A stretch of 64,000 nt of DNA, from positions 18,690-82,689 of the forward strand of contig CAKOXV010000005.1 in assembly GCA_934130355.1 (NCBI GenBank). The letters run 5' to 3'. This DNA is from an uncultured Clostridia bacterium (GTDB taxonomy: Bacteria > Bacillota > Clostridia > TANB77 > CAG-508). Below the pieces are notes generated by a model, which worked only from the letters and a program-made list of their open reading frames with translations, ran no database searches and was not told the origin of the DNA. This document shows, in pieces, positions 24,259 to 42,262 of the stretch; the first letter of the stretch is position 1, and each line of letters begins with the position of its first letter. Position numbers and translations under genes: made by a program.

Positions 24259-25272
24259 ATGGAAGAATTAGTGGACATACTAGTAGCAACATATAATACA
24301 CAAGAAAAATACTTAAGAAAACAAATAGAAACAATATTAAAGCAAACATATCAAAACATTCAAGTATATATAAGTGATGACAAATCTAGTGACGAAAATG
24401 TAGTAAAAATATTAGAAGAATATGCCCAAAAAGACAAAAGAATAAAATTGTTTATTCAACCAGAAAATTTGGGATATAATAAAAATTTCGAATTTTTATT
24501 AAAACAATCAACAGCAGATTATATAATGTTTTCAGACCATGATGATTCATGGCATTTAGATAAAGTAGAAAAAAGCTTAAAAAAAATAAAAGAAGAAAAT
24601 GTTGACATGGTATATTGCAATTGTAGACAAATAGACGGAAATGGTGTAGTTTTAAAAGAAAACTATTTCAAATATAAAAATGTACCATTAATTAAAAATA
24701 AAAATAAATTAGCGATATCAAGATGTGCAGGATTAGGATGTTCACAAATAATAACCAAAGATGTAAAAGACAAAATGCTTCCATTTAAAGAAGAAGTAAT
24801 TGCACATGATTGGTTAGCAGCATTTATTGCAAATGAAGGAAAAGGAATAAGATATATAAAAGAACCATTATTTGATTATAGATTACACAACACAAATGTA
24901 TTTGGAGGAAGAAATCTACAACAAAATATAGGAAAATGGAAAAAAGAAAATGGAAAAGGCTATAAATCATTTACAAACTACAGAAAAGATGTTATAAAAA
25001 GAGCATACTCTGGCGGAATAGAAATGTGCAAAAAATATGTAACAGATGAAAAAGACAAAAAATTTATAGAAAAAGCAGAAAAATATTATCAGAAAATATC
25101 AGGAAACAAAATTCTTTACTTTAATATTGGAACATATTTTAAGATATTAGACGGAAAAAATCAAGCCCAAAAAGAATTAAGAGAAATTGTTTTATTTCAT
25201 TTTCCACTATTAGCTTATATCAAATTTGCTATGACAAGAGTGCCAAAGGAAAAAGCAGAGAAAGGAAAATAA
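24259..25272 (+). CDS. Family 2 glycosyltransferase.
   Basis: 'ILVATYNTQEKYLRKQIETILKQTYQNIQVYISDDKSSD' GT-A N-terminus with a DxD region. Confidence 0.8.
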   Translation: MEELVDILVATYNTQEKYLRKQIETILKQTYQNIQVYISDDKSSDENVVKILEEYAQKDKRIKLFIQPENLGYNKNFEFLLKQSTADYIMFSDHDDSWHLDKVEKSLKKIKEENVDMVYCNCRQIDGNGVVLKENYFKYKNVPLIKNKNKLAISRCAGLGCSQIITKDVKDKMLPFKEEVIAHDWLAAFIANEGKGIRYIKEPLFDYRLHNTNVFGGRNLQQNIGKWKKENGKGYKSFTNYRKDVIKRAYSGGIEMCKKYVTDEKDKKFIEKAEKYYQKISGNKILYFNIGTYFKILDGKNQAQKELREIVLFHFPLLAYIKFAMTRVPKEKAEKGK

Positions 25273-25273
25273 G

Positions 25274-26065
25274 ATGGAATTCATAAAATCAGTAATTAAA
25301 AATAAAAAATTAATATGGCAATTAGGAAAAAATGATTTCAAAAACAGATTTGCCAGCACAAGTTTAGGAACACTATGGGGATTTTTACAACCATTTATAT
25401 TTATGCTAACTTATGTAATAGTATTTCAATACATATTAAAAACAGGAAAAACAGAAAATGTACCTTATGTAGTATGGTTTTTACCAGCAATGTCTGTATG
25501 GATGGGTGCAAATGATATGATATTATCAGCAAGTAATTCAATAAGAAGCTATAGCTACTTAGTTAAAAAGATTGTATTTCCAGTAGATGTCATACCAATA
25601 ATATCAATAATGGCAAGTAGTTTTGTATCATTATTTTTAATAACAATATCAATTATAGTTAGTGCTGTATATGGATATATAGTAAATATATTTATGCTAA
25701 TATATATATTATTTTGCATGTATTGTTTTGTAATAGCATTTACAAGATTTACATCAGCAGTAGTAACAGTTGTTCCAGACTTTGGACAAGGATTAAATAT
25801 AATAATGCAATTAATATTTTGGTTCACACCAATAATTTGGAATATGAACATGCTAGATGGAAGACCTAAATTACAAATGCTAATGCAATTTAATCCATTC
25901 ACATATTTAGTAACAGGAATGAGACAAGCATTTATAGAAGGAAATATTGTAACAGAAAGCCATGGAATGTATACAATAGTATTCTGGGTAATTACAGCTG
26001 TAATTTTCTTATGGGGTAATTATGTATTTAAGAAAAACAAAAAGGATTTTGCAGACGTATTATAA
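25274..26065 (+). CDS. ABC-2 type polysaccharide/teichoic-acid export permease (TagG/Wzm-like).
   Basis: Six TM helices. Architecture and size match Wzm/TagG. Followed by a Wzt/TagH-like ATPase. Confidence 0.8.
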   Translation: MEFIKSVIKNKKLIWQLGKNDFKNRFASTSLGTLWGFLQPFIFMLTYVIVFQYILKTGKTENVPYVVWFLPAMSVWMGANDMILSASNSIRSYSYLVKKIVFPVDVIPIISIMASSFVSLFLITISIIVSAVYGYIVNIFMLIYILFCMYCFVIAFTRFTSAVVTVVPDFGQGLNIIMQLIFWFTPIIWNMNMLDGRPKLQMLMQFNPFTYLVTGMRQAFIEGNIVTESHGMYTIVFWVITAVIFLWGNYVFKKNKKDFADVL

Positions 26066-26084
26066 AAAAAGGAAGAGGAATAAT

Positions 26085-27072
26085 ATGGATGAACAAATAG
26101 ATGTACTATTAGCAACTTATAATGGAGAAAAATATCTAAGAGAGCAAATAGATAGTATACTTAATCAAACATACCAAAATATAAGATTAATAATATCAGA
26201 TGACTGTTCAAAAGATTCAACAGTGCAAATAATAAAAGAATATCAAAAAAAAGATAATAGAATAATTTTATATGAACATCCAAAAAACTTAGGATATATA
26301 AAAAACTTTGAGTTTTTAGTAACAAAAGTAGAAAATGAATTGTATATGTTATCAGACCAAGATGATGTATGGAAAAAAGACAAAATAGAAAAAACATTTA
26401 AGAAATTAAAAGAAGAAGATGCAGATTTAGTATTTACAGATGTAGAAATAGTAGACTCAAATTTAAAACAAATATATCCATCATTTAATAAATACATGAA
26501 ATTAGAAAGAAAAATAAAAAAGACCACAGGTGTTGAAAGGCAATATCTATATAATTGTGTTACAGGATGTACTTTGATGTCAAAAAAGAAATTTATAGAT
26601 AAAATTGTACCATTCCCAACGACATCAAAATATGTGGTACATGATTTATGGATTCGGAATAATAGTTGCAATGTATGGTAAAATGGTATATTTAGATGAA
26701 ACAACAATATATTATAGACAACATGGAAATAATCAAATTGGAACTGAAAAATTATCACACAAATTTACTAAATTTGAAGATGTAAGAGAATTATTTATAA
26801 ACGTTAAATTAGGCATATTTGGAACATATGTACAGAATAATGATAGATTTACAGAAGAGCTTAGAGCCAAAAATGAAAGAGCATTAAAATATTATACAGA
26901 TATAAAAGACAAAAAATATATAAATTTTAAAGGATGGGGAGTGTTTCATGAACTATACAAACATGAAACAATATATTATTACATACTAAGCTTTATAATA
27001 ATGAATATTCCAATTTTAGGAAAAGGATTATTTAAAATAAGAAACTTAATTAAAAAAATGAGAAAGGCCTGA
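26085..27072 (+). pseudogene. Family 2 glycosyltransferase, paralogue of 24259..25272, interrupted by a +1 frameshift near 26650-26656.
   Basis: The N-terminal 'IDVLLATYNGEKYLREQIDSILNQTYQNIRLIISDDCSKDS' reading frame stops at 26681. The protein continues in another frame ('GIIVAMYGKMVYLDETTIYYRQHGNNQIG'), aligning with the paralogue across the break. There is one extra nucleotide at 'tgg-a-ttc'. Confidence 0.7.
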
Positions 27073-40898: not shown

Positions 40899-40916
40899 TA
40901 AAAAAGGAAGAAAAAA

Positions 40917-41852
40917 ATGGATAAAATTTCAGTAGTTGTTTCATGCTATAATGAGGAAAAAGCATTACCATTATTTTATAAAGAAATGGAAAGAGTAAGA
41001 GAGCAAGATTTTGGAGAATCTGTCGAATTTGAGTATATATTCGTAAATGATGGGTCAAAAGATCAAACATTAGATGTAATAAAACTATTAAGGTCTCAAG
41101 ATTCAAAAGTAAAATATATATCTTTTTCAAGAAACTTTGGAAAAGAAGCTGCAATGTTAGCAGGTCTAGAAGCGGCAACAGGAGATTATATAACATTAAT
41201 GGATGCAGATTTACAAGATCCACCAGCATTATTAAAACAAATGTATAATGCTATTATTAATGAAGGCTATGATTCTGTTGGAACTAGAAGAGTTACAAGA
41301 AAAGGTGAACCACCAATAAGAAGCTTTTTTGCCAGAATGTTTTATAAAATAATAAATAAAATATCAGACATAGAAATGGTTGATGGTGCTAGAGATTATA
41401 GATTAATGAAAAGGCAAGTTGTAGATGCAATTATTTCATTAAAAGAATATAATAGATATTCAAAAGGACTATTTAGTTTTGTTGGATTTAATACTAAATG
41501 GATTGAATATGAAAATGTAGAAAGAGTTGCAGGAGAGACCAAATGGTCATTCTGGAAACTTTTCAAATATGCATTAGAAGGAATAACAGCATTTTCAACA
41601 ACACCATTAATATTATCATCTATATTAGGACTATTATTTTGTGGAATTGCATTTTTAGCAATAATATTTATAATAGTAAAGACTTTAGTATATGGTAATC
41701 CAACATCAGGTTGGCCATCACTTGTATGTATAATAGTGTTTGTTAGTGGTGTTCAATTATTCTCTATAGGTGTAATTGGACAATACTTATCAAAAACATA
41801 TTTAGAAGTAAAAAACAGACCAATATATATTATAAAAGAAAAAGAGTTTTAA
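40917..41852 (+). CDS. GtrB/ArnC/CsbB-like GT2: polyprenyl-phosphate sugar transferase with two C-terminal TM helices.
   Basis: 'ISVVVSCYNEEKAL', 'DADLQDPP', and a C-terminal membrane anchor. Confidence 0.8.
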   Translation: MDKISVVVSCYNEEKALPLFYKEMERVREQDFGESVEFEYIFVNDGSKDQTLDVIKLLRSQDSKVKYISFSRNFGKEAAMLAGLEAATGDYITLMDADLQDPPALLKQMYNAIINEGYDSVGTRRVTRKGEPPIRSFFARMFYKIINKISDIEMVDGARDYRLMKRQVVDAIISLKEYNRYSKGLFSFVGFNTKWIEYENVERVAGETKWSFWKLFKYALEGITAFSTTPLILSSILGLLFCGIAFLAIIFIIVKTLVYGNPTSGWPSLVCIIVFVSGVQLFSIGVIGQYLSKTYLEVKNRPIYIIKEKEF

Positions 41853-41905
41853 AAAGAAACTTTTTTGAGAAAGGGATAAAAATGAAAATAAGGAGAAAAG
41901 ATATA

Positions 41906-42262
41906 ATGAAAGTAGTATTTGTAATGATTTATCTAGTATTAACAGTATCAGGCTTAATTTTGATGAAAAAAGGTGGAAATGCAGGAAAAATAAAAATTGC
42001 AGCAGGAGAATTTAATTTAAGTATAAGCTTAGTAAGTTGTCTTGGATTTTTATGTTATATATGTAGTTTTTTACTATACACAAGAATAGTAATGATGTTT
42101 GAAAATTTAAGTTACATAACACCGATTTGCACAGGACTATCACAAATAATGATATTACTTGCATCATGGTTAGTACTAAAAGAAAAAATATCAGGTTTAA
42201 CAATTGGAGGAGTTGCATTAGTAATTGTTGGAATTGTAATAATGAACTTAAAAATACAATAA
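41906..42262 (+). CDS. Small four-TM DMT/SMR-like protein (ArnE/ArnF- or GtrA-like flippase subunit).
   Basis: 119 aa, four TM helices, immediately downstream of the GtrB/ArnC-like gene. RBS AAGGAG. Confidence 0.55.
   Translation: MKVVFVMIYLVLTVSGLILMKKGGNAGKIKIAAGEFNLSISLVSCLGFLCYICSFLLYTRIVMMFENLSYITPICTGLSQIMILLASWLVLKEKISGLTIGGVALVIVGIVIMNLKIQ

Follow-up and report, generated by a model that had tools for sequence, protein, structure and literature searches.

A gene cluster of an uncultured gut Clostridia bacterium for a probable ABC-exported cell-wall polysaccharide, with interleaved wall hydrolases

Gene content of the locus and its relatives

The stretch of DNA considered here (64 kb of contig CAKOXV010000005.1 from an uncultured Clostridia bacterium; hereafter, the window) harbours a cluster of 17 co-oriented + strand genes at positions 24259-42262 that probably directs the synthesis of a non-teichoic secondary cell-wall polysaccharide by an ATP-binding cassette (ABC) transporter-dependent route. 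The gene run is unbroken, its first start codon lies at 24259 and its last stop codon at 42262, and the open reading frame (ORF) map places recO on one side and mreB on the other. Besides a Wzm/Wzt-type exporter, it comprises eight glycosyltransferase (GT) domains in seven genes plus GalE, all in the same orientation (Table 1). An earlier note, made from the letters of the sequence, had described this region as a co-oriented glycopolymer locus. The ORF map and the domain identities computed in Pfam and NCBIfam scans bear this description out, and every domain call of that note was reproduced.

Related loci are referred to by L numbers. The nearest public genomic relative is L001, an uncultured Clostridia metagenome-assembled genome (MAG) of the MGBC catalogue with 78-82% nucleotide identity. 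It was the sole locus returned by a contig scan with the GT2+GT4 protein (81% identity), and an exact-sequence look-up of this protein found nothing on record. L007 (from a Hadza sample) and L008 are gut-metagenome contigs that are 99.4% identical to window positions 18829-39340. The core kept in relatives consists of Wzm, Wzt, the GT2+GT4 fusion, a membrane protein of 520 aa, the small GT2 and its small partner gene; in the relatives used for this comparison, the membrane protein is 37-45% identical to that of the window. For the small partner gene, a DUF2304 match is on record in L004. Locus L018 has the same layout, with DUF2304 present and a different membrane protein in the 522-aa slot. 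Some related loci carry a Wzx-like gene, and some carry glf together with a GlfT2-like gene.

Table 1. Features of the glycopolymer locus and its boundaries (window positions).
Feature	Position	Strand	Evidence or remark
Terminator-like hairpin after recO	24112-24135	+	Upstream locus boundary
GT2a, 337 aa, TuaG-like, no transmembrane (TM) segment	24259-25272	+	PF00535, 1.7e-29
Wzm/TarG-type ABC-2 permease	25274-26065	+	PF01061, 5e-16, 59 bits (cut-off 26.9)
GT2b, GT2a paralogue split by a frame change at ~26655	26085-27072	+	PF00535-type GT2; probable pseudogene
Wzt/TagH-type ABC ATPase, 400 aa	27078-28280	+	Nucleotide-binding domain and ~150-aa C-terminal extension
GT-B (GT4-like) glycosyltransferase	28289-29542	+	Fold from AlphaFold2 (AF2) and Foldseek; unnamed in the earlier note
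Bifunctional GT2+GT4, 678 aa	29547-31583	+	PF00535, residues 8-129; PF00534, residues 491-584
Polytopic membrane protein, 522 aa, probable GT-C-type transferase	31596-33164	+	~10 TM helices, ~175-aa extracytoplasmic domain
Secreted GH25 muramidase	33236-35344	+	PF01183, 1.4e-35, 123.7 bits (cut-off 27), residues 496-687
GacI/PpgS-like soluble GT2, 246 aa	35502-36242	+	PF00535, 2.3e-32
DUF2304 small membrane protein (GacJ/Rv3632 family)	36244-36576	+	PF10066, 78.8 bits (cut-off 25.5)
GT2, 347 aa	36591-37634	+	PF00535, 3e-33
Secreted M14 zinc peptidase	37648-39876	+	PF00246, 1e-14, 55.3 bits (cut-off 21.6), part of profile
GalE, UDP-glucose 4-epimerase	39888-40898	+	TIGR01179, 443 bits (cut-off 262)
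GtrB/CsbB/PgfS-like GT2, two C-terminal TM helices	40917-41852	+	PgfS NF047588, 340 bits (cut-off 500); ArnC, 161 bits
EamA/ArnE-like protein, 126 aa, four TM	41882-42262	+	EamA, 27.0 bits (cut-off 28.2)
mreB/mbl	42311-43345	+	PF06723, 475 bits; 48 bp past the EamA-like gene
Terminator-like hairpin after mreB	43322-43345	+	First one downstream of the locus

The exporter

The transporter class was computed from profile scores and from relatives in the PDB. For the permease, the best of these relatives are TarG (6jbh_C, 2.4e-32), 9cfp, which pairs with the TagH chain 9cfl, the permease of 6m96/7k2t, which we take to be Aquifex Wzm, and the mycobacterial O-antigen/lipopolysaccharide transport permease 9qfx_A. 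The ATPase reaches 229-242 bits with the NCBIfam TagH models, 197 with galactan Wzt and 135 with DrrA, all below the equivalog cut-offs. Its PDB ranking is led by the 404-aa protein of 8dku/7k2t, labelled "ABC transporter" and presumably the full-length Aquifex WzmWzt, followed by TarH, TagH and mycobacterial RfbE. The phmmer alignment with 8dku/7k2t covers residues 7-355 and thus extends past the nucleotide-binding domain. Scores and structural relatives of both subunits agree on an exporter of the TagG/TagH (Wzm/Wzt) type, as had been proposed, and not of the drug-efflux type, DrrA scoring well below TagH. Since Wzt, TagH and TarH form one transporter class, a match to TagH or TarH does not define the cargo.

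The C-terminal extension of the ATPase is likely to be a carbohydrate-binding domain that senses the terminal residue of the exported chain. Wzt orthologues in related loci do match Pfam Wzt_C, weakly so in the 408-aa orthologue of L018.

Cytoplasmic glycosyltransferases

GT2a has TuaG as its best NCBIfam model (77 bits, well under the cut-off), and its orthologues, with 48-69% identity, lie at the 5' end of loci L003, L011 and L014. GT2b is 43% identical to GT2a over the first 190 residues. Its reading frame is lost at "tgg att c gga", a site outside any homopolymer run, and a phase-variation tract was ruled out. An assembly error was likewise excluded, by the identical sequence in two independent metagenome contigs: L007 and L008 have the GT2b sequence of the window despite 102 mismatches elsewhere in 16.6 kb. 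In L001, GT2b is one intact ORF (4823-5896). Because the break is identical in L007 and L008 and the gene is intact in L001, it is a fixed trait of the lineage, and GT2b is most likely a pseudogene. The frameshifted paralogue noticed earlier is therefore real, as computed from its identity to GT2a and from the shared break.

Fusions with the same two-domain architecture as the GT2+GT4 protein occur in L001, L002, L004, L005 and L018, with 70-81% identity in L001 and L005/L006. This enzyme is likely to be the backbone polymerase, for which it is the candidate. A GT2 of 347 aa likewise comes after the small partner gene in L002, L003 and L005; that of L003 shows 43% identity. The sole nucleotide-sugar gene is GalE, and neither rml nor glf genes occur in the locus.

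This gene set bears on whether the product might be a classical wall teichoic acid, that is, a polyol-phosphate polymer exported by TagGH. The strong matches of the ATPase and the permease to TagH/TarH and TarG models and structures would fit such a polymer, as would the teichuronic-acid protein TuaG as best match of GT2a and GT2b, but the TagH and TuaG scores fall far under the equivalog cut-offs. Moreover, TagF/TarL/TagB (PF04464, Glyphos_transf), TagD/TarI/TarJ and LicD-type proteins are absent from the ORFs of the locus and of the window, which leaves a teichoic acid highly improbable. With no teichoic, rml or glf genes and with GalE alone, the product would rather be a polysaccharide of common UDP-hexoses or UDP-N-acetylhexosamines (UDP-HexNAc).

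The glycosyltransferase gene next to wzt

The gene at 28289-29542 has no Pfam family above threshold, and its homologues, of which there are more than 359, are all annotated as "hypothetical". Its GT-B fold was computed. The AF2 model (pLDDT 91.7) comprises two Rossmann domains and, C-terminal to them, one helix of 68 residues and an amphipathic helix at the very end, and Foldseek returned 109 matches in the PDB at E<=1e-3, the top ones being GT-B enzymes, mostly of GT4, such as BshA, WbnH, PimA and TarM. A homologue lies directly 3' of wzt in L001, L005, L007 and L018.

In the ABC-dependent O-antigen pathways, WbdD and WbbB act as chain terminators. By analogy with these two proteins, the product of 28289 is a candidate terminator or adaptor that might set or cap the chain end. 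Its helix is a single predicted helix of 68 residues and not a demonstrated coiled-coil ruler.

The slot after wzt is variable. In L004 (3259-6044) and L014 (17080-17985), a metallo-beta-lactamase-fold protein replaces the GT-B gene, and the L004 slot also holds a 616-aa protein with a methyltransferase domain; together, they may represent an alternative system for modifying the chain end. In L001, the 28289 homologue (7238-8498) is split over two frames and GT2b is intact. The lineages thus differ in which glycosyltransferase gene is disrupted, provided that the split in L001 is not an assembly error of the MAG.

Predicted decoration outside the membrane

Two groups of genes point to sugar donors linked to a lipid monophosphate. 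The first includes the 246-aa GT2 at 35502, the DUF2304 gene that begins 2 nt after its stop codon, and the 522-aa membrane protein. The best NCBIfam model of the GT2 is PpgS (91.7 bits against a cut-off of 370); the gene call of L007 places the start of the homologue 15 codons later. Judged by sequence similarity, it is predicted to be a polyprenyl-phosphate HexNAc synthase. GacJ, a member of DUF2304, stimulates GacI, just as Rv3632 stimulates PpgS, and a pair of the GacI/GacJ type makes the polyprenyl-phosphate HexNAc donor that is used by a GT-C enzyme (10.1101/180810).

The 522-aa protein is likely to be this GT-C enzyme. It has no Pfam match, and a PDB sequence search of its family gave nothing usable. 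Among the 28 homologues detected, one matches PMT_2, and an aspartate directly after the first TM helix (Asp29) is invariant in the family. The AF2 model (pLDDT 85, pTM 0.88) has GT-C enzymes at all of its top Foldseek probabilities (ALG3 0.99, AftA 0.80, ArnT 0.75, Pmt4 0.66), none of them at E<=1e-3. The putative GT-C transferase of the earlier note is hence favoured by the Foldseek probabilities, Asp29 and PMT_2, whereas Pfam and the Foldseek E-values do not add to it. Genes of the 522-aa type stand beside or near a GacI-like gene and its small partner in three divergent loci. The three products would together form a side-chain module of the GacI/GacJ/GacL kind.

The second group lies at the 3' end of the locus. 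The GT2 at 40917 matches sll0501 (5ekp, 1.8e-72 over residues 3-307), presumably the Synechocystis GtrB structure, and ArnC (7.7e-41) over its full length, and two hydrophobic C-terminal segments are visible in its sequence. It is predicted from these matches to be an undecaprenyl-phosphate hexose or HexNAc synthase. The small protein at 41882, with weak ArnE and SMR matches, is a candidate flippase for a lipid-linked sugar; in L004, two EamA-like genes in tandem adjoin the GacI/J-like pair. Flanked by GalE and the EamA-like gene, 40917 would belong to a second module for a lipid-sugar donor. According to tblastn, this 3' module (GalE, GtrB-like, EamA) is absent from L002 and L005, and L004 has GalE and EamA homologues only.

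The 3' module also raises the possibility that all or part of the locus serves protein O-glycosylation, an outcome that the earlier note had named as one that would count against its reading. In its fuller form, this alternative holds that the ABC-exported glycan is moved onto an S-layer or other surface protein. The form considered more plausible is confined to the 3' module, with a YfhO-type GT-C enzyme encoded elsewhere that glycosylates Ser/Thr-rich surface proteins, on the pattern of the Pgf and GtrB/PgtC2 systems of streptococci. Bacillales S-layer glycan clusters also use Wzm/Wzt. The best model of 40917 is PgfS, an enzyme of protein O-glycosylation in S. mutans, and the gene stands beside an epimerase gene as pgfS does with pgfE; a GT-C partner for 40917 is not identifiable in the locus. 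Enzymes of the GtrB/PgfS type feed streptococcal protein glycosylation and serve protein O-glycosylation through YfhO-type GT-C enzymes (PMC12041528). However, wall polymers are decorated by members of this class as well (SccN, CsbB, GtrB), and the PgfS score stays under the 500-bit equivalog cut-off. A YfhO protein, an oligosaccharyltransferase of the Wzy_C/WsaB type, an S-layer gene and a Ser/Thr-rich adhesin gene are all lacking in the window, and the absence of the 3' module from some relatives makes it resemble an accessory decoration unit. Protein O-glycosylation is thus an unlikely reading, with the 3' module as the part to which it may apply.

Wall hydrolases and their repeats

A GH25 muramidase and an M14 peptidase had been reported to be interleaved among the glycosyltransferase genes, and both exceed their Pfam gathering scores. 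Signal peptides were judged by inspection of the two sequences, as were the HxxE and distal His motifs of the M14 zinc ligands; in the PDB, the M14 enzyme shows weak similarity to carboxypeptidases A4 and B. An origin of the hydrolases from prophage endolysins was ruled out by the signal peptides and by the lack of phage-related domains in the scanned window genes.

Each enzyme carries four 114-aa repeats of one and the same family, at residues 32-490 ahead of the catalytic domain in the GH25 enzyme and at residues 30-486 in the M14 enzyme. Repeats of one protein share 45-66% identity, and GH25 repeats share 27-40% with those of the M14 enzyme. The extent of the family was computed with a profile built from these eight repeats, four from each enzyme. 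An exhaustive search of representatives yielded 1,697 cluster representatives at E<=1e-3, the best 150 of which all have 2-10 tandem copies. Among 50 sampled carriers, 21 have GH25, five M14, two Amidase_3, one Glucosaminidase, two Peptidase_C39_2 and one VanW. Such a spread of partner domains is typical of a module that targets autolysins to the wall. Pfam covers the repeat partially, via Big_7; no publication on Big_7 as a wall-binding module turned up in a literature search, and a PDB sequence search with the repeat gave nothing usable (8jiy, partial, E 6e-4).

The linkage of such hydrolases to glycopolymer genes was also computed. In all four informative carrier contigs, the hydrolase gene lies within a homologous glycopolymer locus; two further carriers, P0150 and P0166, are on contigs too short to show neighbours and stand outside this count. 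Locus L010 has GH25 followed by a GtrB-like gene that is 78% identical to 40917, and L013 has a GT2+GT4 fusion, further GTs, GH25 and a GacI-like gene. The order is GT2a homologue, M14, a 252-aa gene and Wzm in L011, and era, recO, GT2a homologue, M14 with eight repeats, a 247-aa gene, Wzm and Wzt in L014. In L001, a gene for M14 with repeats lies ~1.3 kb upstream of wzm, with one 239-aa ORF in between, and in L002 a GH25 gene, established by its GH25 domain only, lies at the 3' end of the locus. The presence of a hydrolase is kept while its position varies, which argues for functional coupling.

In C. difficile, CWB2 repeats bind the wall polymer PSII (PMC4973711, PMC5065235). By comparison, it is possible, though not favoured, that the 114-aa repeats bind the polymer made by the surrounding locus. 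The hydrolases might equally be passengers whose repeats bind peptidoglycan or another common wall component, the co-location reflecting shared regulation with wall growth, which is also a possible but not a favoured explanation. The motifs GW, RxDV and NPxxG are conserved throughout the repeat family irrespective of which glycosyltransferases a locus encodes, so that a shared ligand, for instance peptidoglycan, fits equally well. Passengers would also account for the low identity between GH25 and M14 repeats within one cell and for the varying position of the hydrolase genes within the loci. On the other side stand the four carrier contigs, the window, L001 and L002, in all of which such hydrolases are found within homologous loci or at their margins. 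Their positions differ, and one of the loci occupies another chromosomal site; this is more than simple synteny would give. The CWB2 and PSII precedent, too, pairs a binding module with polymer genes (PMC4973711).

Also possible but not favoured is the broader idea of a cassette of polymer genes and cognate autolysins, found at the era-recO site in two lineages and bearing a previously undescribed family of wall-binding modules. If true, glycosyltransferase content (glf/GlfT2-like genes, methyltransferase, GtrB module, inactivated GT2b) and targeting repeats would diversify together, in parallel to CWB2 with PSII or to SLH with pyruvylated secondary cell-wall polysaccharide, with a new pair of fold and ligand.

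The proposed pathway and its product

The order of steps that these genes suggest is as follows. A priming transferase encoded outside the window would start the chain on undecaprenyl phosphate. The peripheral cytoplasmic enzymes GT2a, the 347-aa GT2, the GT-B protein and the GT2+GT4 protein, the last as likely polymerase, would extend it from common UDP-sugars, with GalE supplying a galacto-configured donor and GT2b being inactivated in this lineage. Wzm/Wzt would then export the finished lipid-linked chain, the chain end probably being recognised by the C-terminal domain of Wzt and set, as the best candidate encoded beside wzt, by the GT-B protein. Outside the membrane, the chain would be decorated from lipid-monophosphate sugar donors, one made by the GacI-like GT2 with its DUF2304 activator and another by the GtrB-like GT2. 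The small EamA protein may flip these donors, of which one or both may be transferred to the polymer by the 522-aa GT-C-like protein. Attachment to peptidoglycan would fall to an LCP ligase encoded elsewhere, and the GH25 and M14 enzymes would act as secreted autolysins that are targeted to the wall by their four tandem repeats, possibly through polymer binding.

Assembly on the cytoplasmic face followed by ABC export, as originally suggested, is supported by the cytoplasmic glycosyltransferase set, by Wzm/Wzt and by the lack of Wzx, Wzy and Wzy_C in the window and of any Polysacc_synt or MurJ-like family in the locus ORFs. Of the three products that had been offered, the secondary cell-wall polysaccharide fits best. 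A wall teichoic acid in the strict sense is not supported, given the missing TagF/TarL and TagD/TarIJ, nor is an S-layer glycan, given the lack of a Wzy_C oligosaccharyltransferase and of an S-layer gene.

Several observations weigh against this reading. The window ATPase does not match Wzt_C (PF14524) even at E<=10, and a small profile comparison of its C-terminus with Wzt_C-bearing orthologues by hhalign was not significant. The locus offers a single GT-C candidate for two lipid-sugar synthases, the leading model of 40917 is the protein-glycosylation enzyme PgfS, albeit below its cut-off, and the repeat motifs are indifferent to the glycosyltransferase content. Finally, neither a priming transferase of the WecA/TagO type nor an LCP ligase is encoded within the 64-kb window. 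Both had been expected outside the locus, and the linkage of the polymer to the wall is an assumption.

The lack of an LCP ligase from the window would also suit a capsule, an exopolysaccharide or a lipid-anchored glycan in place of a peptidoglycan-linked polymer, and ABC-dependent capsules exist. Such a product is nonetheless improbable. The locus is situated among core envelope and division genes (uppP, mreB, sepF, divIVA, ftsK, murC), with apparent read-through into mreB, and wall hydrolases are embedded here and in relatives. Export components of the Kps capsule type are not present, and the architecture parallels the streptococcal wall rhamnopolysaccharide loci, whose products are attached by LCP proteins. 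A peptidoglycan-linked secondary cell-wall polysaccharide thus remains the preferred product.

Transcription and genomic surroundings

In the interval 23400-43390, the + strand has only two terminator-like sites, namely the hairpins that follow recO and mreB, and none inside the locus. The genes may share a single long transcript, or a small number of them, running into mreB, and the absence of a hairpin before the end of mreB suggests read-through from the glycopolymer genes into this cell-shape gene. A promoter-like site with a TG-extended -10 element at 24190-24218 is a suggestion only. The promoter scan is uninformative in such AT-rich DNA, with 139 matches against 142 expected from shuffled sequence.

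The window has a G+C content of ~27%, a steadily positive GC skew and a set of clostridial housekeeping and sporulation genes. On the 5' side of the locus lie dpaA, uppP, era and recO, and on the 3' side mreB, mutL, miaA, sepF, divIVA, ftsK, murC and a SipL/LysM protein gene. The undecaprenyl-diphosphatase gene uppP (BacA/UppP, 17323-18123, 253 bits), 6 kb upstream and outside the cluster, is relevant to recycling of the lipid carrier. A 756-aa ORF (19876-22146) encodes a highly charged, coiled-coil-like protein without a Pfam or NCBIfam family; its counterpart in L014 (62% identity) occupies the same place before era-recO. This ORF and that of 497 aa at 53157-54650 were rejected as candidates for a second GT-C enzyme, both products being soluble, charged and coiled-coil-like. 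The latter and the 394-aa ORF at 13921-15105 encode acidic soluble proteins without a Pfam match (for the 394-aa protein, without an NCBIfam match either).

Two surface-type DUF285 (BspA-like) leucine-rich repeat proteins with 10-12 repeats are encoded at 1791-6809 (1672 aa) and 7093-10479 (1128 aa), downstream of a signal-peptidase-like gene (56-649) and a DUF5305 gene (662-1774). Across the window, a single Rfam match reaches the gathering threshold, a tRNA gene (18699-18772). A dispersed intergenic repeat of ~270 bp resembles a miniature inverted-repeat transposable element, with perfect 15-bp terminal inverted repeats (GTATATATATTAAAA) and no Rfam match. It is present as a full copy at 59785-60056 and as a partial copy on the opposite strand at 49281-49470. 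L007 has a copy (~200-270 bp; 17117-17386) in the spacer between GH25 and GT2, where the window is without it (between 35426 and 35433).

Significance

The locus type is known: it is an ABC-dependent secondary wall polysaccharide locus with three-component side-chain glycosylation, and its pathway logic has been described in streptococci, mycobacteria and Gram-negative O-antigen systems. New are the host lineage, the orphan GT-C-like family, the family with a GT-B fold plus helix beside wzt, and the embedded autolysins with their unannotated repeat, none of which overturns current models. To our knowledge, there has been next to no characterisation of wall polymers in uncultured gut Clostridia of low GC content. 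The locus provides a testable blueprint for a polysaccharide that would be exported by an ABC transporter, contain no rhamnose and bear side chains of the GacIJL kind. In addition, at least 359 "hypothetical" proteins gain a fold, an orphan membrane family of 28 members a likely role, and the 114-aa repeat a candidate wall-targeting function. Wall-targeting domains find use in the engineering of lysins and in the labelling or capture of uncultured bacteria, and they help to explain phage receptors and how cell surfaces vary between strains.

Comparison with known systems

The closest parallels are the rhamnose wall loci of streptococci, lactococci and enterococci (gacA-L of the group A carbohydrate, S. 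mutans SCC, L. lactis cwps, E. faecalis epa). As is proposed for the window locus, they combine cytoplasmic glycosyltransferases with a Wzm/Wzt-type exporter (GacD/E); a GacI-type synthase, the DUF2304 partner GacJ and the GT-C enzyme GacL for side chains; and a second donor of the GtrB/SccN type, with the priming enzyme (GacO) and the LCP ligase encoded elsewhere. Unlike them, the window locus has no rml genes, so that its backbone is not a rhamnan, and GalE is its sole nucleotide-sugar gene. It has a small EamA protein in place of the Wzx-type GacK, no glycerol-phosphate transferase of the GacH type, a GT-C candidate without detectable sequence similarity to known families, and embedded hydrolases. 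Its host belongs to a spore-forming, uncultured lineage of gut Clostridia.

The overall design also matches the mycobacterial arabinogalactan branch (galactan/GalN), which comprises the galactan exporter Wzm/Wzt (Rv3783/Rv3781), PpgS (Rv3631), Rv3632 (DUF2304) and the GT-C enzyme Rv3779. The galactan exporter Wzm is the best NCBIfam model of the window permease, PpgS is the top model of 35502, and the DUF2304 protein belongs to the Rv3632 family. In contrast, the scores are far under the equivalog cut-offs, glf and GlfT2 are missing from the window, and the host is a Firmicute.

The ABC-dependent O-antigen pathways (E. coli O9a/O8, Klebsiella/Raoultella) have a Wzt with a carbohydrate-binding domain. 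With them and the WzmWzt transporter of Aquifex aeolicus, the window locus shares a Wzt C-terminal extension, which aligns with the 8dku/7k2t ATPase, a multi-domain polymerase-like glycosyltransferase, and a wzt-adjacent glycosyltransferase whose long helix is joined by an amphipathic, membrane-seeking tail. It differs in that its Wzt does not match Pfam Wzt_C and in its Gram-positive host, in which the acceptor would be peptidoglycan and not lipid A-core.

The 3' module recalls the GtrA/GtrB/GtrC, CsbB/GtcA/YfhO and ArnC/ArnEF/ArnT systems through the full-length GtrB/ArnC match of 40917 and the adjoining four-TM EamA/ArnE-like protein. However, a partner of the GtrC, YfhO or ArnT type is not recognisable beside 40917, and the window has one EamA subunit as opposed to the two of ArnE/F, a number that is reached in L004.

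The PSII locus of C. difficile includes LCP and priming genes, and its polymer is exported by a flippase of the MviN/Wzx type, whereas the window locus uses an ABC transporter. The 114-aa repeat is unrelated to CWB2. Even so, both loci link clostridial genes for a wall glycopolymer to genes for wall proteins with tandem repeats, which are the PSII-binding CWB2 repeats in C. difficile and candidate binding repeats in the window.

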